A stretch of DNA of 43,638 bases from Flavobacteriales bacterium (GCA_027031025.1 JALVEJ010000033.1:1-43638); one strand, 5' to 3'; positions 4,374-43,638 are shown, counted from the first letter of the stretch. Program-made: numbers and translations. The notes: generated by a model not told the origin, from the letters alone.

Positions 4374-5972
4374 ATGAAACGAAAAATTTTGTTATGGATG
4401 ACTTTGTTCGTTCCGGCGTTAAATTTTGCTCAAGAAACAGCAGAAAAAGGAATTGATCAACGCATTGAAGAAATGTTTAAACCCGTCTCCGATTTTTGGT
4501 GGGATTTGGTGTTTTCTTCCATCAATGTTGTCGGTTACAAAATTCCTATCGTATTGATTTTATTGATATTAGGGGCAGCATATTTTACGTTTTATTTTAG
4601 ACTTCCACAATTCAAATTGTTTAAAACAGCCATAAAAGTGGTTGCCGGCAAATATGATGACATCGATCATCACGATTCTTACAAACCTGCGGATGACCCT
4701 TTAGTTGAGCCACATGAAGATATTCCCGAAACCATCAAAATAGAAGGTGCGCATCATGGTGAAGTATCACATTTTCAAGCCTTGTCAGCGGCTTTGTCCG
4801 CAACAGTAGGACTTGGAAATATTGCCGGTGTAGCAGTAGCTATTGCCATTGGTGGTCCGGGCGCTACTTTTTGGATGATTCTTGCCGGATTACTGGGCAT
4901 GGCTTCCAAATTTACCGAATGTACACTTGGCGTCAAATACCGGGATATTGGTGAAGATGGCACTGTTTACGGTGGTCCGATGTATTACCTGAAAAAAGGT
5001 TTTGCAGAAATGGGCAAAGGAACTTTCGGAAAATTTTTGGCAGTATTTTTCGCCATTATGGTCGTCGGTGGATCATTTGGCGGTGGCAATATGTTTCAAG
5101 CCAATCAAGCCGCGGCGCAGTTTAAAAAATTGTTTGATATTACACATCCCAATGCCGGTTCGTATTTTGGAATTGTTCTGGCTATCATTGTAGGAATTGT
5201 AATTATAGGTGGCATTAAACGAATTGGTAAAGTGGCGGAAAAAATTGTGCCGTTTATGGCTGTCATGTATGTGGGGGCGGCTTTACTTATTATTTTTTTA
5301 AACTTGGGTTTGGTTCCTGAGGCTTTCAAACTTATTGTTACCCAAGCCTTTACGCCGGCAGCTGGTTTAGGAGGCTTTATGGGCGTATTGATTCAAGGTT
5401 TTAGAAGGGGAACTTTCTCTAATGAAGCCGGTGTCGGGTCGGCGGCTATAGCCCACTCAGCCGTTAAAACCAAATATCCTGCCAGCGAAGGCATCGTTGC
5501 ACTTCTTGAACCTTTTATTGACACTGTTGTCATTTGCACTATGACAGCTTTGGTATTGATTATCACTAACTTAAAATATGGTTTGTTCAATTACGGCGAC
5601 GCCTCGCTAGACGGTAAAGGGGTTGAATTAACCGCAACGGCTTTTGATTCGGTTATTCCGCATTTTTCCATTATTCTGACCATTGCTGTTATTTTGTTTG
5701 CTTTTTCCACCATGTTATCTTGGTCTTATTACGGACTGCAAGGTTGGAAGTTTGTATTCGGTCGTAGCAAAACTGCCGATTTGGTCTATAAATTTTTATT
5801 CTTATTTTTCGTTTTTGTCGGTTCGTCTGTCAAATTGGGTTCCGTTCTCAATTTCTCAGACGCTATGATTTTTGCTATGGTCTTTCCCAATGTGATTGGA
5901 CTGTTCTTTTTGGCGCCCAAAGTCAAGACGGAATTGCGTAGATATCTGAAAGCTATTAAGAAGAATAAGTGA
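4374..5972 (+). CDS. alanine/glycine:cation symporter (AGCS) family amino-acid carrier
   Basis: 532 aa and multi-pass. AGCS-type segments seen: FQALSAALSATVGLGNIAGVAVAIAIGGPGA and FSNEAGVGSAAIAHSA. Confidence 0.85.
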   Translation: MKRKILLWMTLFVPALNFAQETAEKGIDQRIEEMFKPVSDFWWDLVFSSINVVGYKIPIVLILLILGAAYFTFYFRLPQFKLFKTAIKVVAGKYDDIDHHDSYKPADDPLVEPHEDIPETIKIEGAHHGEVSHFQALSAALSATVGLGNIAGVAVAIAIGGPGATFWMILAGLLGMASKFTECTLGVKYRDIGEDGTVYGGPMYYLKKGFAEMGKGTFGKFLAVFFAIMVVGGSFGGGNMFQANQAAAQFKKLFDITHPNAGSYFGIVLAIIVGIVIIGGIKRIGKVAEKIVPFMAVMYVGAALLIIFLNLGLVPEAFKLIVTQAFTPAAGLGGFMGVLIQGFRRGTFSNEAGVGSAAIAHSAVKTKYPASEGIVALLEPFIDTVVICTMTALVLIITNLKYGLFNYGDASLDGKGVELTATAFDSVIPHFSIILTIAVILFAFSTMLSWSYYGLQGWKFVFGRSKTADLVYKFLFLFFVFVGSSVKLGSVLNFSDAMIFAMVFPNVIGLFFLAPKVKTELRRYLKAIKKNK

Positions 5973-6021
5973 GTTATGTAGTGGAAAACGATATAGTAAA
6001 AAAAGTATCAAATACTAACAT

Positions 6022-37375: not shown

Positions 37376-37382
37376 ATTGTTT

Positions 37383-37700
37383 TTTTGAGGAATTGAGGAT
37401 TTTCCCTGCTTCATAGTTTATTTGTCACTTTTGATGATTGCTTATAGCTTCATACTATATTACTGCTTCTAATTTGAGGAAGTGAGGATTTTTTCGCTGC
37501 TTCATAGAAGGCTTTGCGCTTTGATGATTGCTTGTTGCTTCAAACAATGTTTCTGCTTACGATTTGAGGAATTGATGAAATGATGAAATGATGAGTTGAG
37601 GAAATGAGGATTATAACTGCTTCATAAATTGTTATGGTCTTTGATATTTTTTCACTACTTCTGATGTTACTTCTGCTTACAATTTGAGGAAGTGAGGAAT
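37383..37700 (+). repeat. tandem array, about 3.5 units of the ~90-bp TTTGAGGAAnTGAGGATT family
   Basis: TTTGAGGA occurs at 37383, 37472, 37562 and 37683 (periods 89, 90, 121; the long unit has an internal GATGAAAT duplication). Shared blocks: CTGCTTCATA, TTTGATGATTGCTT, GCTTCA, CTGCTT. Confidence 0.8.
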
Positions 37701-37763: not shown

Positions 37764-37920
37764 GGTTTTCAATTGCAAATTTTATTAAAAACAACTTTTT
37801 ACTCTCCATTACTTCTAAAATCGGCGTTCGTCACTTCGACAGGCTCAACACAAGTGTTCTATATTCGTCATTCAAGTTTTCAATATTTTGTTGTGTTTTT
37901 TAGTATAAAGCAGCCGGTTA

Positions 37921-37940
37921 TTTTTAGCTTTTACCACACG
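37921..37940. repeat. left arm of a 20-bp perfect inverted repeat bracketing the toxin locus
   Basis: TTTTTAGCTTTTACCACACG is the exact reverse complement of 43429..43448. Imperfect extension GGTT(A/TC) lies outside both arms. GGTAGCGGG at 37955..37963 is mirrored by CCCGCTACC at 43381..43389. Confidence 0.8.
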
Positions 37941-37951
37941 AAAGAATTTGT

Positions 37952-40543
37952 GTGGTAGCGGGCGAACGCCTGCATACCGATAAAGACATGGGACACGACG
38001 GCTATAATGGTGACCGTGTAGCCGGTGATGCTTTCGGATTTTCTTTATCCTATTTTTCAAATACTACAGGACAACCCTACGACGACTATAAAGCCCGTAA
38101 AGCCGATGAAAGTATTAATTTAGGACTAACTCATAATAGTACTATTTACAATTACAACAGAAACCTGTTTAACGGCAATATTAAGACTATGGTAACCGCT
38201 TTGCGCGATACTAAAAGTAAGCCTATTGATATTGCGCTTAACAACTATACTTACGACCAGCTTAACCGTATTCGAAATATGGAGTCGCATATATTAGAAC
38301 CATCTACTTTGGCTCCGCAATACAATGACTTGATACAAACCTCGTACAATTATGACCGTAATGGAAACTTAAAAAAGTTAAATCGTAATGCCATTATTGG
38401 TGGTACTGTGCAACATATGGACGCACTGACTTATCATTATAATATGACAGGCTCCCCTTCAAGGTTAGAAAACAACCAATTGCTATGGGTTGATGATGCT
38501 GTACCTGCCACCGTAACCAATGTAGATGTTGATGATCAAGATAAAGGCAACTATACTTACGATGCCATAGGACAACTTACCAAAGACGAAGCCGAAGGAC
38601 TAAAAAGCATAGAATGGACGGTTACCGGCAAAGTCAAGAAAATAATTAAAGTAAAAAATGAGGTTACAGAAGAAATCAGCTTTACCTATGATCCTTTAGG
38701 CAATAGGTTAAGCAAGAGCGTTAAAAATAAAAAAGGAACGACTACGACTTACTATATCCGTGATGCGCAAGGCAATCCGTTAGCGGTCTATCAATGCACA
38801 AAAGAAAACAATGAAATAGCCTCATTCTATCTGCAAGAAAATGATATATACGGCAGCAAACGACTGGGTATCCATCATTATGATTCTAAAACCGGCAATA
38901 TGCTGGTCTCTCGTCCTGCTACTGATGTATATGCCAACACCATAGGCGACAAGCAATACGAACTGAGTAACCATTTGGGCAATGTGCTCAGTGTGATTAC
39001 CGACCAAAAATTACTTAACATCCAACGCGGCACACCGGTATTTGAAGCCCGTTTTGATGAGGATGATGAGATAATGCCGTTTAGCCCAACTCCGGACATA
39101 ACCAAAGTAGCCAACACCGGACATGTTTTATTAGTAGAAAACACACCGGGCATACCGGAACAAGGCGCTTATACAACCATAAGTTTACAATCCGGCAAAA
39201 AATATTTGTTAAACTTTGACATGCCGCTTAACGAACTCGAAGGCACGTTTGAAGTAATCATTTTGGATAATACTTCGAATGATGCAGTTATAAAAGAGCT
39301 TATAGAACAAAAACAAACCGGACACCTAAGTTACACGTTTACAGCCCCAACCACCGGTGGTTACACCCTATCATTCTTAACCTACGAAAAAGCCCAAGGC
39401 ACATTTAGCCTCGACAACATAGAAATTTTAGACATAACCGGATTAAACCCCGCCGAAGTAGCCGCACATTCGCAAGAAATGCCTATCTTTGTACCAAGCG
39501 TTCTTTCATTTAGTGATTATTATCCTTTTGGTATGTTGATGCCGGGTAGGCATGCAAGTAGTAGTTTTTATAGGTATGGATTTGGTGGGCAAGAGAAAGA
39601 TGATGAGATTAAGGGAAAAGGTAATCATATTGCATATGCCGAAAGAGGATATGACCCAAGAGTAGCAAGATGGATAAGCGTTGATGTCTATGCACCGGCA
39701 TTAGCCTCATTTTCACCTTATAATTATGCCTTAAATAATCCCATTTGTCTTGTTGATGAAGAAGGAAATTGGCCTAAACCTTCAAGTTTATTGCCGGATG
39801 ACACTTCACCTTTGATAAAAGGCTTGGTTGATGGAGTATGGGAAGGCTTAACAGGTTCAGTAGGATTTGCTTGGGATTATGCAACTGATTCAAAATTCAG
39901 GGAACAAGTAAACGCTTCTTTCAAAGCATTAATAAATGATCCGTTAGGAACACTTCAAGGTATTGTAGATGAATATGCAGATTTAATAAACAGGACTTTA
40001 TCAGGAGATGCTTCTGATGAAGATATTTATAGAATTGGTGAGGAAATAGGTGAAAATGGCATTGGTTTGCTACTTGGTGGTTCAACTTTGGTTGCCAAAG
40101 GTGTCAAAAAATTTAGCAAACTTAAAATTGCGAAAGGTAGGTTTGTTAAAAAAATTATTAAAGAAACAGAAAAAATGCCTGCTTGGGTTAAAGCAGGTAA
40201 AGACTTTGAGATTGATTTAATGAATAAGTTTGTTAATAAGGGTTATAAGGTAGTTACACAAGTCTCATTTGCAGCAATAGATCCAAAAACTGGAAAAAAA
40301 ATTAGAGCAGTTGTTGATGGTATTGTTATAAAAAATGGAAAAATCTTAGGTTTCGTTGAAGCAAAATTAACCAAAGGAAAAACCCAATTAACAAGAAATC
40401 AAAAAATTGTTTATGAAGCTTTAAGGAAAGGAGAAGCGGTAGCAGTTGGCAGTAAAGCAAAAAAAGTAGAAGAAATAACAAAAGGTGCTATTAAAGTTGG
40501 AGAAAAAGTCAAAGCAAATGTACATATTTTATATAAACAATAA
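37952..40543 (+). CDS. Rhs/YD-repeat protein fragment (N-terminally truncated) with RHS core end and C-terminal toxin domain
   Basis: 863 aa from a GTG; the frame opens only at 37928, after TAG at 37925..37927. YD repeats: YNYDRNGNL, YTYDAIGQLT, FTYDPLGNRL. Core end: DYYPFGMLMPGR, YGFGGQEKDDE, RGYDPRVARWISVD, SPYNYALNNPICLVDEEGNWP. A 255-aa variable tip follows. Confidence 0.8.
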   Translation: MVAGERLHTDKDMGHDGYNGDRVAGDAFGFSLSYFSNTTGQPYDDYKARKADESINLGLTHNSTIYNYNRNLFNGNIKTMVTALRDTKSKPIDIALNNYTYDQLNRIRNMESHILEPSTLAPQYNDLIQTSYNYDRNGNLKKLNRNAIIGGTVQHMDALTYHYNMTGSPSRLENNQLLWVDDAVPATVTNVDVDDQDKGNYTYDAIGQLTKDEAEGLKSIEWTVTGKVKKIIKVKNEVTEEISFTYDPLGNRLSKSVKNKKGTTTTYYIRDAQGNPLAVYQCTKENNEIASFYLQENDIYGSKRLGIHHYDSKTGNMLVSRPATDVYANTIGDKQYELSNHLGNVLSVITDQKLLNIQRGTPVFEARFDEDDEIMPFSPTPDITKVANTGHVLLVENTPGIPEQGAYTTISLQSGKKYLLNFDMPLNELEGTFEVIILDNTSNDAVIKELIEQKQTGHLSYTFTAPTTGGYTLSFLTYEKAQGTFSLDNIEILDITGLNPAEVAAHSQEMPIFVPSVLSFSDYYPFGMLMPGRHASSSFYRYGFGGQEKDDEIKGKGNHIAYAERGYDPRVARWISVDVYAPALASFSPYNYALNNPICLVDEEGNWPKPSSLLPDDTSPLIKGLVDGVWEGLTGSVGFAWDYATDSKFREQVNASFKALINDPLGTLQGIVDEYADLINRTLSGDASDEDIYRIGEEIGENGIGLLLGGSTLVAKGVKKFSKLKIAKGRFVKKIIKETEKMPAWVKAGKDFEIDLMNKFVNKGYKVVTQVSFAAIDPKTGKKIRAVVDGIVIKNGKILGFVEAKLTKGKTQLTRNQKIVYEALRKGEAVAVGSKAKKVEEITKGAIKVGEKVKANVHILYKQ
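39211..39357 (+). repeat. rhs-internal segment duplicated at 43492..43638
   Basis: 39241..39357 is identical to 43522..43638 (117/117). 39230..39240 has 2 mismatches. Homology decays upstream to about 39211. Confidence 0.9.
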
Positions 40544-40548
40544 TAATT

Positions 40549-41175
40549 ATGGAAAGAAAAGAATTGTTTTTCAGTTTGCTAAACAAGGAGTTGTCAAAGG
40601 ATGGATTTAAATTTGTTAAAAGTAAAAAAATATTTAGGAAGAAAGAAAATGGCAATGATTTTTTTATTGAATATGAAACTTGGCCATATTTTTTTGCAAT
40701 CAAAACCCATTATTATATTTTTTTAAAAGAAGTAGAAAAAATAAAAAAAAAGGCATGGGGCGAGATATATCAAAGATATTATACATTAGGAGACACTAAA
40801 CAAGATATAGAAAAAACAGACACCGAAAAAAAGGTAATCGAAGTTGCTAAAAAAGAGATAAAATTTTATCATTCTTTTTTAAAAGATTATTTCAAAAAAA
40901 ACTCTAACTATGAGCATATAGATAAAACTCTTAACGAAATTCCCGGAAAGAATTTACACTTGAGTTTTAATGAAATTTTAACTAGCTATTTAGCTATTAT
41001 TGTTGCAAAACTTACAAATAATCCAAAAATTGAAGAATTATTTGTTTTTTATAGAAATGTAATAATAAGTTTAAAAAATGAAAAACTTTTTTCAAAAACA
41101 CAGGAAGAATATATAGATGAAAGTATTGTTAAGTATGATTTATTAGTTGATTATTTAAGAAAAATGAAAAAATGA
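40549..41175 (+). CDS. putative cognate immunity protein (DUF4304-like N-terminal pattern)
   Basis: 208 aa. It starts 5 nt after the toxin stop, on the same strand. N-terminus: ELFFSLLNKELSKDGFKFVKSKKIFRKKENGNDFFIEYE. No signal peptide. Confidence 0.55.
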   Translation: MERKELFFSLLNKELSKDGFKFVKSKKIFRKKENGNDFFIEYETWPYFFAIKTHYYIFLKEVEKIKKKAWGEIYQRYYTLGDTKQDIEKTDTEKKVIEVAKKEIKFYHSFLKDYFKKNSNYEHIDKTLNEIPGKNLHLSFNEILTSYLAIIVAKLTNNPKIEELFVFYRNVIISLKNEKLFSKTQEEYIDESIVKYDLLVDYLRKMKK

Positions 41176-41245: not shown

Positions 41246-42016
41246 ATGAAAAACGTATATAGAATAAAATTGGCATGTTTAAAAAAGATTAATAATGAGA
41301 CTATTAAACTATTTTTCGATTATTTAAAAACATTTGAAGGAGGAAAGTATTTTCCTGCAAAATGCGATGTATATGAACCTGTGAAAACTGTTTTACATCC
41401 TAATGACTATAACAAACAAGTGAATTGGCTTTTACAACCAGCAAGTTCTTTGATATGTAAAACCAAAGATGGTGTTTTTTTAGGAATAATTGAAAATAAA
41501 ACAAAAGCAGAAATTTTTGTTATTCAAAATGGAAAAAAAACGCCCTTTGGGAATCAGGAAGAAAATATATTTAAAACTGAAATTACAATATGGATAAAAA
41601 GTAATGATTATAACCATTTAGCTATTTTTATTAAAGAATTATATGAACGATTAGAATGTGATTATGGTTTTTTAACATTGGAAGATGACTATTTAAATCA
41701 GAACTTTATCAGAAAAGTTATTCATAATGACATAACAATTGAAGAATTTGTTGGCGATAATTTAAATGATTTTATACCCGGAATTTATTGGTTAAATTTT
41801 TTTGGAAATTTACCAATGTTTCATCATATTCATAAAATTAACCTTAATGATTTTTATACTGAAAAATTAAAAAATAATTCATTGCTTGTAAAAGTTTTTG
41901 AACATCCGTCGGACTATAACAAAAGATATGCATTTATTAATACTAAGAAACTAAGAAGTTTAATTGGTGAAAAATATATATTTGATAAATCAGATATAAT
42001 TGAAAAGGAATTCTAA
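41246..42016 (+). CDS. second immunity-like protein (orphan)
   Basis: 256 aa, cytoplasmic and very A/T-rich. The C-terminal segment IPGIYWLNFFGN recalls immunity families of polymorphic toxin loci; this is from memory and unverified. Confidence 0.4.
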   Translation: MKNVYRIKLACLKKINNETIKLFFDYLKTFEGGKYFPAKCDVYEPVKTVLHPNDYNKQVNWLLQPASSLICKTKDGVFLGIIENKTKAEIFVIQNGKKTPFGNQEENIFKTEITIWIKSNDYNHLAIFIKELYERLECDYGFLTLEDDYLNQNFIRKVIHNDITIEEFVGDNLNDFIPGIYWLNFFGNLPMFHHIHKINLNDFYTEKLKNNSLLVKVFEHPSDYNKRYAFINTKKLRSLIGEKYIFDKSDIIEKEF

Positions 42017-42025
42017 AAACGTTAT

Positions 42026-42087
42026 TTAAAAAAAATGAATAAAACTTTATTAATTTTATTTTTGGGAATTTTTACCATAACCAATGC
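42026..42087 (+). repeat. duplicated 5' end (ribosome-binding region plus signal peptide) of the 42953 gene
   Basis: 42048..42087 is identical to 42966..43005 (40/40: TATTAATTTTATTTTTGGGAATTTTTACCATAACCAATGC). The upstream AAAAAAAATGAA is also shared. Confidence 0.85.
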
Positions 42088-42436: not shown

Positions 42437-42910
42437 ATGAAAAAAATAAAAAAAGGAGATGTTTTTGTGTTCAAGTATAATGATAGAAAGTTTGTTGTTG
42501 GTCAAATTATCAGAAAAATGGAACATCATATTGTTGTGATTATCTTTAAAGATTTGATTGACAAAAACAAATTGAATGATATTAATATAGATAAACTTAC
42601 ACCTATTTTGATAGCGAATACATTTGAAAGTAAATTGGAAAAAGGTGACTGGGTTATAGTTTCTAATAAAAGTGTTAAAAATAAATTTGAAAAAAGTAGA
42701 TATTATAAAGTTGGGATGAATGGTAGAAAAACTTTATTAATAAATGAAAAAAATGAAATAATAAGAGAATTAAAAAAGGATGAAGAGGATAATTATTGTT
42801 ATGAGAAATATGTTTCACCTGTTAGATTAGAAAAAGCGATTAGAGCATTTATTGATAAAGATGCATGGAAAGAGAGTTATAATTGTCTACTAATCTCTAA
42901 ATATTATTAA
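42437..42910 (+). CDS. immunity protein, Imm26-like by N-terminal pattern
   Basis: 157 aa. It starts 12 nt after the degraded toxin tip. N-terminus: KKIKKGDVFVFKYNDRKFVVGQIIRK. Confidence 0.5.
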   Translation: MKKIKKGDVFVFKYNDRKFVVGQIIRKMEHHIVVIIFKDLIDKNKLNDINIDKLTPILIANTFESKLEKGDWVIVSNKSVKNKFEKSRYYKVGMNGRKTLLINEKNEIIRELKKDEEDNYCYEKYVSPVRLEKAIRAFIDKDAWKESYNCLLISKYY

Positions 42911-42943: not shown

Positions 42944-43005
42944 ATAAAAAAAATGAAGCAAGCACTATTAATTTTATTTTTGGGAATTTTTACCATAACC
43001 AATGC
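42944..43005 (+). repeat. partner of the 42026..42087 duplication
   Basis: See 42026..42087. Confidence 0.85.
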
Positions 43006-43378
43006 CCAAAATAGAGAGTCACAAGTTGTAGATGAATTAATAGCGGTTACAAAAGTAAAAGAATCTTTACCGCTTATGGTTAATTCTATAATAGACAGAT
43101 TTAAGCAGAAAAGCACTAATATTCCTGATACATATTGGGAAGAAATAAAAAATAGCATAGACTATTTTACTTTTTTAGAGAAGGTTAAAAAACTTTATAT
43201 CGAAAATTACAACTTAGCAGAACTAAAAGAATTGGTATCGCTTTATAAATCGGGAAATATAGAATCTTATAAGCTAAAATTAGAAAAGATAACACCACAA
43301 CTTTATCAAATAGGAAAAGAATTTGGACAACAAACAGCTCAATTTATTGTAGAGAAAATTAAAGCCTATAAAAAATAA
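42953..43378 (+). CDS. secreted DUF2059-like protein
   Basis: 141 aa. Signal peptide MKQALLILFLGIFTITNAQ. The helical body has a YNLAELKELVSLYKS segment reminiscent of DUF2059. Confidence 0.55.
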   Translation: MKQALLILFLGIFTITNAQNRESQVVDELIAVTKVKESLPLMVNSIIDRFKQKSTNIPDTYWEEIKNSIDYFTFLEKVKKLYIENYNLAELKELVSLYKSGNIESYKLKLEKITPQLYQIGKEFGQQTAQFIVEKIKAYKK

Positions 43379-43411: not shown

Positions 43412-43428
43412 TTTAATCTTAAAAAAAT

Positions 43429-43448
43429 CGTGTGGTAAAAGCTAAAAA
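43429..43448. repeat. right arm of the 20-bp perfect inverted repeat
   Basis: CGTGTGGTAAAAGCTAAAAA is the reverse complement of 37921..37940. Confidence 0.8.
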
Positions 43449-43454
43449 GAAACC

Positions 43455-43490: not shown

Positions 43491-43638
43491 AAAACTTTGC
43501 AATAACATCCAACGAACTAAAAGGCACGTTTGAAGTAATCATTTTGGATAATACTTCGAATGATGCAGTTATAAAAGAGCTTATAGAACAAAAACAAACC
43601 GGACACCTAAGTTACACGTTTACAGCCCCAACCACCGG
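43491..43638 (+). pseudogene. start-less orphan rhs fragment (partial, continues beyond the window)
   Basis: The frame opens after TAA at 43488..43490 and reads NFAITSNELKGTFEVIILDNTSNDAVIKELIEQKQTGHLSYTFTAPTTG. This matches residues of the 37952 gene encoded at 39214..39357. No ATG/GTG/TTG start lies in frame. Confidence 0.6.

Follow-up and report, generated by a model that had tools for sequence, protein, structure and literature searches.

A Rhs C-terminal tip with a predicted PD-(D/E)xK-type toxin domain and an adjacent immunity candidate at a 5'-truncated rhs gene of a Flavobacteriales bacterium

We analysed a 43,638-nucleotide (nt) stretch of DNA from a Flavobacteriales bacterium (GCA_027031025.1 JALVEJ010000033.1:1-43638; hereafter the window), which carries at positions 39776-41175 the C-terminal tip of an rhs gene and the small gene behind it, a candidate polymorphic-toxin cassette. 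The rhs gene is a 5'-truncated Rhs/YD-repeat open reading frame (ORF) of 863 amino acids (aa) on the plus strand (37952..40543), with a nominal GTG start and with its core end and C-terminal tip intact. The NCBIfam scan placed the Rhs-associated core domain (TIGR03696, Rhs_assc_core; E=9.4e-12, 45.3 bits against a cutoff of 32.5) at ORF aa 523-605 (39518..39766, plus strand), where it ends ...NNPICLVDEEGNWP. RHS_repeat (PF05593) barely passed its cutoff in the Pfam scan (22.7 bits vs 22), and TIGR01643 stayed below threshold in the NCBIfam scan (15.0 vs 15.8). The core is followed by a tip of 255 aa (39776-40540), which begins KPSSLLPDDTSPLIKGLVDGVWEGLTGSVGFAWDY, and then by a co-directional gene for a protein of 208 aa (40549..41175, plus strand). 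The G+C content (GC) falls from 0.38-0.41 in the rhs core to 0.23-0.29 from the toxin onward; a variable tip after the core, a small downstream gene and a composition shift at the tip are all present in the window.

The tip is composed of two modules, a helical pre-toxin part of ~125 aa and a toxin of ~120 aa. Only ten homologues of the 255-aa tip were found, and all ten have in common its first ~125 residues (LPxDTSPLIKGxVDGVWEGLTG ... LLGGSTLVAKGVKK), which in the window correspond to tip aa 1-124 (LPDDTSPLIKGLVDGVWEGLTG...LLGGSTLVAKGVKK; 39776..40147, plus strand). The C-terminal part is kept in just three of these proteins, namely P0001, which is 80% identical in the toxin part, and P0003 and P0005 (~25%). 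In the remaining homologues the same module is joined to a WHH/Colicin-DNase domain (P0007 and P0010), to a GIY-YIG-looking domain (P0006 and P0008), to an ExKNY...DxRG domain of the ExKNY restriction endonuclease (REase) type (P0002 and P0004) or to yet another type of C-terminal domain (P0009), which makes at least five types with the window's own. Since these C-terminal domains differ behind one shared helical half, we regard the latter as a reusable pre-toxin module. It had no Pfam match, and neither PT-TG nor the other Pfam pre-toxin families matched the tip at E<=1; a part in packing, release or entry may be proposed for it. Insertion of the module into membranes was also considered and was not supported, the highest 19-residue Kyte-Doolittle mean being 0.92 and no transmembrane segment being present. 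As a separate observation, P0002 and P0004 carry, on visual inspection, the motif string of Tox-REase-10 (ExKNY ... DxRG) and yet match no Pfam model, for which reason several polymorphic-toxin clades appear to be missing from the Pfam library.

The toxin domain occupies the last 131 aa of the ORF (residues 733-863; 40148..40540, plus strand), and the final ~120 aa of the tip include GKDFEIDLMNKF...RAVVDGIVIKNGKILGFVEAKLTKGKTQLTRNQ. A word-indexed homologue search with a 4-sequence toxin profile returned a single protein, and an exhaustive search of 1.84 billion representative proteins with a 4-sequence profile of the C-terminal ~130 aa returned at least 98 clusters at E<=1e-3, 59 of them at E<=1e-10. 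Across the 98 clusters the domain is always found at the extreme C-terminus, in host proteins that range from 53 to 5260 aa. The family is mostly carried on Bacteroidota Rhs proteins: five of eight members scanned with Pfam contained RHS repeats, four of those together with DUF6443, and the three shorter members had no Pfam match. A genome scan with an 8-sequence subfamily alignment gave toxin matches in metagenome-assembled genomes (MAGs) of Cyclobacteriaceae, Marinifilum, Saprospiraceae, Ferruginibacter and Allomuricauda. No Pfam-A or NCBIfam model reached its cutoff for any of ~50 family members, and Pfam scans of 44 members, eight further tips and a RhsA fragment produced sub-threshold matches only.

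Conservation was counted in an alignment of 44 diverse homologous domains, 18-52% identical to that of the window, with one at 80%. Five residues stand out as predicted catalytic positions, given here with their number within the 131-aa segment in parentheses: E753 (E21; 40208-40210), conserved in 38/44 and otherwise Q or G; D789 (D57; 40316-40318), in 43/44; and E803 (E71; 40358-40360), K805 (K73; 40364-40366) and Q817 (Q85; 40400-40402), each in 44/44, all on the plus strand. In the same numbering, G17 is conserved in 43/44 and R53 in 39/44, and the toxin subfamily of the window also keeps a QxxxY motif (NQKIVY).

An AlphaFold2 model built with the 44-domain alignment (predicted local distance difference test score, pLDDT, 94.6; predicted template modelling score, pTM, 0.85) comprises the elements H12-30, E34-44, E51-62, E65-73, H83-94, E97-100, H102-111 and E125-129, where H stands for helix and E for strand. 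The core of this predicted structure is alpha-beta-beta-beta-alpha-beta, as in PD-(D/E)xK nucleases, and its helix 1 carries E21, its strand 2 D57, its strand 3 E71-x-K73 and its helix 2 Q85, which are the canonical PD-(D/E)xK positions. Database comparisons pointed in the same direction at low scores. In Pfam, the window tip matched HSDR_N and YqaJ, and family members matched REase-ARP (9/44) as well as NERD, TnsA, PDDEXK_3 and Hjc, all below gathering cutoffs. No Tox-REase model matched the window tip at E<=1 or the eight further tips and the RhsA fragment at E<=10, and none was among the 25 most-shared of the 62 Pfam families matched by the 44 members, in a test that was aimed at Tox-REase-2, -3, -5, -7 and -9 and in which the presence of these five in the library copy is unconfirmed. 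The top match of a profile search against the PDB was the toxin region of Pseudomonas protegens RhsA (7q97; E=0.0019), aligned via R..D, ExK and LTKNQ, followed by Cas4 SSO0001 (E=0.027) and Card1 (E=0.34); single-sequence PDB searches were uninformative. With the toxin model, Foldseek returned SduA, the R2 restriction-like endonuclease, Exo5, Cas4, AdnAB, RecE, MspJI and RecU from the PDB (best E 0.013, template modelling score, TM, <=0.41), and restriction enzymes, PD-(D/E)xK proteins and phage RecB-like proteins from the BFVD viral models (best E=0.0015). Its top matches were mostly PD-(D/E)xK nucleases, with nothing at E<=1e-3 in either database and TM<=0.5. No profile search placed the toxin tip in a non-nuclease family. 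Taken from family conservation, the model and these weak nuclease matches, a PD-(D/E)xK (restriction-endonuclease-like) fold is the best-supported reading of the toxin.

A sequence-only reading of this DNA had already delimited the end of the core and the 255-aa tip and had quoted parts of the tip, all of which agree with the ORF listing and the TIGR03696 match. It had taken the ordered E, D, ExK and Q for an REase-fold signature, and this is borne out by conservation in 38-44 of the 44 domains, by the core topology in AlphaFold2 and by weak matches that are mainly to PD-(D/E)xK nucleases; its remark that it could not place the tip in a named family by eye likewise holds for the ~50 members against Pfam-A and NCBIfam cutoffs. 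Placement in a non-nuclease family, or loss of the motif residues in homologues, had been named there as possible refutations: the hidden Markov model (HMM) search of the tip against Pfam assigned no such family, and the residues are conserved or invariant. The structural comparison it proposed gave the alpha-beta-beta-beta-alpha-beta core and weak Foldseek matches, mostly to PD-(D/E)xK proteins. The N-terminal half that it had called helical is indeed helical, with the correction that this half is a separate pre-toxin module common to other toxin types.

The toxin reading frame ends with TAA (40541-40543), and the ATG of the 208-aa gene follows at 40549 after five bases (TAATT). The N-terminus of the 208-aa protein shows no hydrophobic stretch (the highest mean over 19 residues on the Kyte-Doolittle scale, 1.27, is internal), and synteny makes it a candidate for a cytoplasmic, cognate immunity protein. 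It has 16 homologues besides the window's own copy. A homologue lies directly 3' of the toxin gene, or overlaps it, in seven of seven loci of the toxin subfamily (the window, L001 and L010-L014), which belong to five bacterial orders; in L001 and in the Cyclobacteriaceae, Marinifilum, Saprospiraceae, Ferruginibacter and Allomuricauda MAGs the two genes are 7-70 nt apart or overlap. The Rhs scaffolds and linkers differ between the loci that carry this pair, and L011 and L014 do not have the pre-toxin module of the window. Because of this strict conserved adjacency we assign the 208-aa gene as the putative cognate immunity gene, for which the genetic evidence, read from gene order, is strong. 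The distant toxin subfamily of P0003 and P0005 is paired with an unrelated protein of 226-227 aa (BLASTP E=0.85), a change of partner that is the co-variation expected of cognate pairs. Stand-alone orphan homologues of the 208-aa gene were found in L006-L009, and in L002-L005 an orphan gene of this type is preceded by a 47-aa remnant of the toxin C-terminus (5854-5997; HMM E=1.4e-10). This remnant is apparently truncated beside genes for Y1_Tnp (REP-associated transposase-like) proteins, and the flanking frames of the same loci contain the peptide MLHTCA / MCGGVLVPYN repeatedly.

The 208-aa protein was modelled by AlphaFold2 with a pLDDT of 95.3, the N-terminal half being alpha+beta and the C-terminal half all-alpha; Foldseek found no fold match for the model in the PDB (best E 0.17, TM<0.3). 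The protein matched no Pfam or NCBIfam family, and no immunity family was matched at E<=1 by any of 18 members (the window protein and 17 homologues). A DUF4304 identity, which the sequence-only reading had suggested for the N-terminus, was not supported, as no DUF4304 match at E<=1 was obtained in the 18 members. The other points of that reading on this gene have stood: the distance of 5 nt from the stop codon and the length of 208 aa are exact, the lack of a signal peptide agrees with the absence of an N-terminal hydrophobic stretch, and the proposal of a cognate immunity candidate is consistent with the adjacency in the seven toxin loci.

The rhs copy of the window lacks ~660 N-terminal residues. 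Its aa 2-355 and 513-605 are homologous to a bona fide 1449-aa Rhs protein from Allomuricauda (locus L014), aa 2-280 aligning with aa 665-930 of that protein, and a stop is found in frame at 37925-37927, 9 codons 5' of the ORF. Pfam and NCBIfam scans of the 863-aa ORF found no N-terminal plug or trafficking domain; the region that would hold one in a complete shell is absent, as the ORF starts at the equivalent of aa 665 of the L014 protein. An internal ATG (M13) is present. The 570 nt before the ORF consist of non-coding degenerate repeats and lie beside the housekeeping genes usp, rimP-nusA-infB and dnaE. At 37380-37700, between the usp gene and the rhs fragment, there are three degenerate, non-coding direct repeats of ~60-90 nt with a spacing of 90-120 nt and 71-81% identity, and Rfam gave nothing credible in this repeat-rich region. 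The Rhs repeat region itself contains an insert of ~110 aa (window 39000-39400, ORF aa ~380-500; FEARFDEDDE...GTFSLDNIEILD) with a weak choice-of-anchor-C-like match (E=0.06); the part of the Allomuricauda Rhs that was aligned contains nothing equivalent to the insert, within which a second rhs fragment of the window starts.

The genes 3' of the rhs fragment are co-directional and of low GC, and include immunity genes, a gene for a 141-aa protein and this second rhs fragment. Between the 208-aa gene and a remnant of the 141-aa gene lies a 256-aa ORF (41246..42016, plus strand; GC 23-25%) with no Pfam or NCBIfam match, which may be a further orphan immunity gene. It is followed by an Imm26-family gene of 157 aa (42437..42910, plus strand; PF15428, E=9.3e-8, 32.8 bits vs a cutoff of 23.3), which has no adjoining toxin and is an orphan immunity gene in the low-GC array. 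The 141-aa protein (42953..43378, plus strand) has a signal-peptide-like N-terminus and a weak DUF2059 match, and the 5' end of its gene is duplicated at 42017-42087 as a 71-nt remnant, a direct repeat with 89% identity. The 141-aa gene also matches positions 5191-5631 of locus L015 at 70% (blastn). Loci L015-L017 show short Rhs-tip fragments, partner genes, a homologue of the 141-aa gene and then a tyrosine-recombinase gene; 141-144-aa homologues close the toxin-immunity cassettes of L015 (5212-5646) and L016 (3408-3833), where a Phage_integrase gene follows.

The second rhs fragment starts at 43492 and reaches the end of the window (43492..43638, plus strand). It is a 93% direct repeat of 39211-39357, and its translation (...ELKGTFEVIILDNTSNDAVIKELIEQKQTGHLSYTFTAPTT) corresponds to aa ~420-469 of the first fragment. 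As it is truncated at another point, the locus is an array of differently truncated rhs cassettes. An inverted repeat with arms of 24 nt lies directly 5' of the truncated rhs ORF (37918..37941) and 5' of the second fragment (43428..43451), the arms being 96% complementary to each other. They contain an identical 21-nt core (TCGTGTGGTAAAAGCTAAAAA) that occurs exactly twice in the window, at 37921-37941 on the minus strand and at 43428-43448 on the plus strand, each time just 5' of an rhs fragment, with 0 occurrences expected (100 shuffles). A hairpin that abuts the truncation point, TACCACAC-n10-GTGTGGTA, includes the first copy. This 21-nt inverted repeat could be a recombination or inversion site; its core was not found in 17 related loci.

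The absence of ~660 N-terminal residues, together with the low-GC array of immunity genes and the second rhs fragment, leads us to regard the window copy as an orphan cassette, in all likelihood. Recombination could draw on it as a store of tips to be swapped, and neighbours that make the same toxin could be withstood by means of its immunity gene; as an independently deployed weapon the window copy is unlikely.

The closest known relative of the toxin is RhsA of P. protegens (PFL_6096; PDB 7Q97), which was shown experimentally to be toxic and to be neutralised by the downstream rhsI (PMC7773334), and whose toxin is a predicted deoxyribonuclease (DNase; PMC8765631). The two are related by profile alignment and are both short, C-terminal and Rhs-borne, with release by the Rhs aspartyl autoprotease presumed for the window toxin; the RhsA toxin is not resolved in 7Q97, and in sequence the similarity is marginal and covers 50 residues. 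RhsA is, moreover, a proteobacterial prePAAR effector of the type VI secretion system whose N-terminus is intact; the copy in the window is an Rhs of the Bacteroidota type and is truncated.

Among catalogued polymorphic toxins, Zhang et al. (2012, PMC3482391) describe the Tox-REase clades 1, 6 and 7 by the motif strings 'E, D, ExK, Q' (REase-1), 'E, D, ExK, Q, Y' (REase-6) and 'GxxxE, IxD, ExK, Q' (REase-7), and report all three on RHS proteins and in Bacteroidetes. The pattern of the window (GKDFE...VVDG...EAK...NQKIVY) fits these strings; for REase-1 and REase-6, which have no model in the library used, the comparison is by motif alone, which does not prove membership. In contrast, the immunity families of these clades (Imm49, Imm-PA2201, Imm23, Imm54 and HEAT) are not matched by the 208-aa protein, and none of the 18 members of its family gave an Imm49, DUF1910 or DUF1911 match at E<=1. 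With RecB/Cas4-type nucleases (Cas4 SSO0001, PDB 4IC1; Exo5, RecE and AdnAB) the toxin has in common an alpha-beta-beta-beta-alpha-beta core in which D sits on strand 2, ExK on strand 3 and Q on the next helix, recurrent weak sequence and fold matches, and the QxxxY of the window subfamily. These matches are all sub-significant (E 0.03-0.4, TM 0.3-0.4), and the window toxin differs in being a minimal domain of ~120 aa without an Fe-S cluster or accessory domains and in acting as a candidate toxin rather than in repair or CRISPR adaptation.

On this evidence we consider it likely that 39776-41175 is a polymorphic-toxin cassette, composed of the pre-toxin module, a PD-(D/E)xK toxin that would be metal-dependent and probably a DNase, and a cytoplasmic immunity protein, of which the window holds an orphan copy. 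Translational coupling of the immunity protein to the toxin would be part of this best explanation. When part of a full-length Rhs protein, the tip would lie enclosed in the YD-repeat shell and would be severed at the ...VDEEGNW motif by the aspartyl autoprotease that the Rhs-associated core provides; that the core acts as aspartyl autoprotease and plug, and cleaves itself, is presumed by analogy with the RhsA and Tc-toxin literature (PMC8765631). The tip may then be delivered into a neighbouring Bacteroidota cell, where D789, E803 and K805 on strands 2 and 3, together with E753 on helix 1, would coordinate a divalent metal and cleave phosphodiester bonds by hydrolysis. The most probable substrate would be DNA, and the invariant Q817 on helix 2 may contribute as in RecB/Cas4-type nucleases. 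In the producer cytoplasm, the 208-aa protein would bind and block the toxin. The computations show where the domains begin and end, the family with its conserved residues, the predicted topology, the toxin-immunity synteny, the truncation and how the array is built; catalysis, metal dependence, substrate, neutralisation through binding, the site of cleavage and the route of delivery are inferred from these.

Several points weigh against this interpretation. The RhsA toxin is itself only a 'predicted' DNase (PMC8765631), and its match to the window toxin spans 50 residues only, at E=0.0019. None of the matches to characterised nucleases, in sequence or in structure, is statistically strong: the Pfam matches all fall below gathering cutoffs, and Foldseek gave E>=0.013 (PDB) and >=0.0015 (BFVD) with TM<=0.5. 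Of the 44 members, 6 have Q or G in place of the helix-1 glutamate. The rhs ORF lacks the N-terminal half of the shell, the plug and the trafficking domain and has only a nominal GTG start, so that expression and delivery from the window locus are doubtful; delivery is in question also because what is left of the gene is an orphan fragment, truncated at its 5' end, within an array of cassettes. Finally, toxins of the PD-(D/E)xK fold are not all DNases, as some CdiA-CT (C-terminal toxin) domains are tRNases. A toxin of the same fold and with the same immunity pairing that cuts RNA, for example a tRNase or an rRNase, is worth considering and in our judgement unlikely. The evidence presented here sets the fold class and the active-site motif only, PD-(D/E)xK-fold polymorphic toxins with tRNase activity exist (CdiA-CT from Burkholderia), and Card1, one of the weak matches, cleaves single-stranded RNA too. 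However, most characterised members of the fold cut DNA (Zhang et al., 2012, PMC3482391), the best matches of the window toxin are DNA enzymes (Cas4, Exo5, RecE, AdnAB, SduA, the R2 restriction-like endonuclease and restriction enzymes), and its nearest toxin relative, RhsA, is a predicted DNase (PMC8765631).

That the E/D/ExK/Q pattern is coincidental, and the domain a non-nuclease toxin acting by binding or on membranes, or no toxin at all, would agree with the lack of a database match at conventional significance. We hold this to be very improbable, given that the exact motif residues are invariant in 44 members as little as 18-52% identical to the window domain (one at 80%) and map to the canonical secondary-structure elements of a confident model, that the domain always sits C-terminally on Rhs proteins and is then followed by a dedicated small gene, that the weak matches come overwhelmingly from one superfamily, and that no hydrophobic segment is present. 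It is also improbable, if somewhat less so, that the 863-aa ORF represents a short Rhs toxin complete in itself, expressed and secreted independently, instead of an orphan fragment. Its frame is open over 863 aa, the core, cleavage motif, toxin and coupled immunity gene are intact, and M13 offers an internal ATG. Against this, the ORF is homologous to the full-length Rhs from its aa 2 onward, equivalent to residue 665 of 1449, it has an in-frame stop 9 codons upstream and neither an N-terminal plug nor a trafficking domain, another rhs fragment, truncated elsewhere, starts at 43492, and related Rhs-tip fragments of 278-346 aa are common in cassette arrays.

An orphan cassette with a PD-(D/E)xK toxin thus remains our preferred interpretation, and its setting has precedents. 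The arrangement in the window resembles the orphan rhs-CT/immunity arrays of Enterobacteria. On the side of the window, the points of comparison with these, and with the rAID-1 (recombinase-associated acquired interbacterial defence) clusters of Bacteroidales, are co-directional low-GC immunity genes and 5'-truncated toxin fragments that share core homology. The rAID-1 clusters are recombinase plus immunity arrays with integron-like repeats, defined by a tyrosine recombinase of the XerD-like kind in 5' position (>=44% identity to BF9343_RS08045) and at least two co-directional low-GC downstream genes (bioRxiv 10.1101/471110). The resemblance of the window array to them is a loose one: the window does have the co-directional low-GC array but shows no recombinase, and membership of rAID-1 cannot therefore be asserted. 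The window also differs in keeping a complete toxin domain besides the immunity gene, its host, so far as one can judge, does not belong to the gut Bacteroidales, and the recombinase of L015-L017 lies 3' of the cassettes, as opposed to 5' in rAID-1.

A bolder proposal, to which we give little credence, is that the array is an active site-specific recombination system, integron- or shufflon-like, which exchanges or inverts Rhs tips in non-gut Bacteroidota, and that the 208-aa protein may in addition represent a new immunity fold or mode of nuclease inhibition. The first part is suggested by the inverted 21-nt copies before two rhs fragments, the recurring 141-aa end gene and the tyrosine recombinase that closes sister loci, and the second by the confident 208-aa model that has no PDB fold match. 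If true, a tip-shuffling array would constitute a mechanism distinct from the homologous-recombination model for orphan rhs tips.

The toxin-immunity pair described here is real and conserved, an ordinary example of a well-known kind, and it leaves the existing picture of polymorphic toxin systems unchallenged. What it exposes is a gap in annotation: a predicted PD-(D/E)xK toxin family that comprises at least 98 clusters and is carried for the most part by Bacteroidota Rhs proteins, and a dedicated putative immunity family are both outside Pfam and NCBIfam, and therefore pipelines label both as hypothetical. The compact domain of 120 aa and its clear predicted catalytic residues make the pair easy to test, and the confident 208-aa model without a PDB match makes the toxin-immunity complex a reasonable structural target. 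The occurrence of one pre-toxin module on at least five toxin types illustrates the modularity of Bacteroidota Rhs tips, and the loci compared here show the spread of orphan cassettes and orphan immunity genes.

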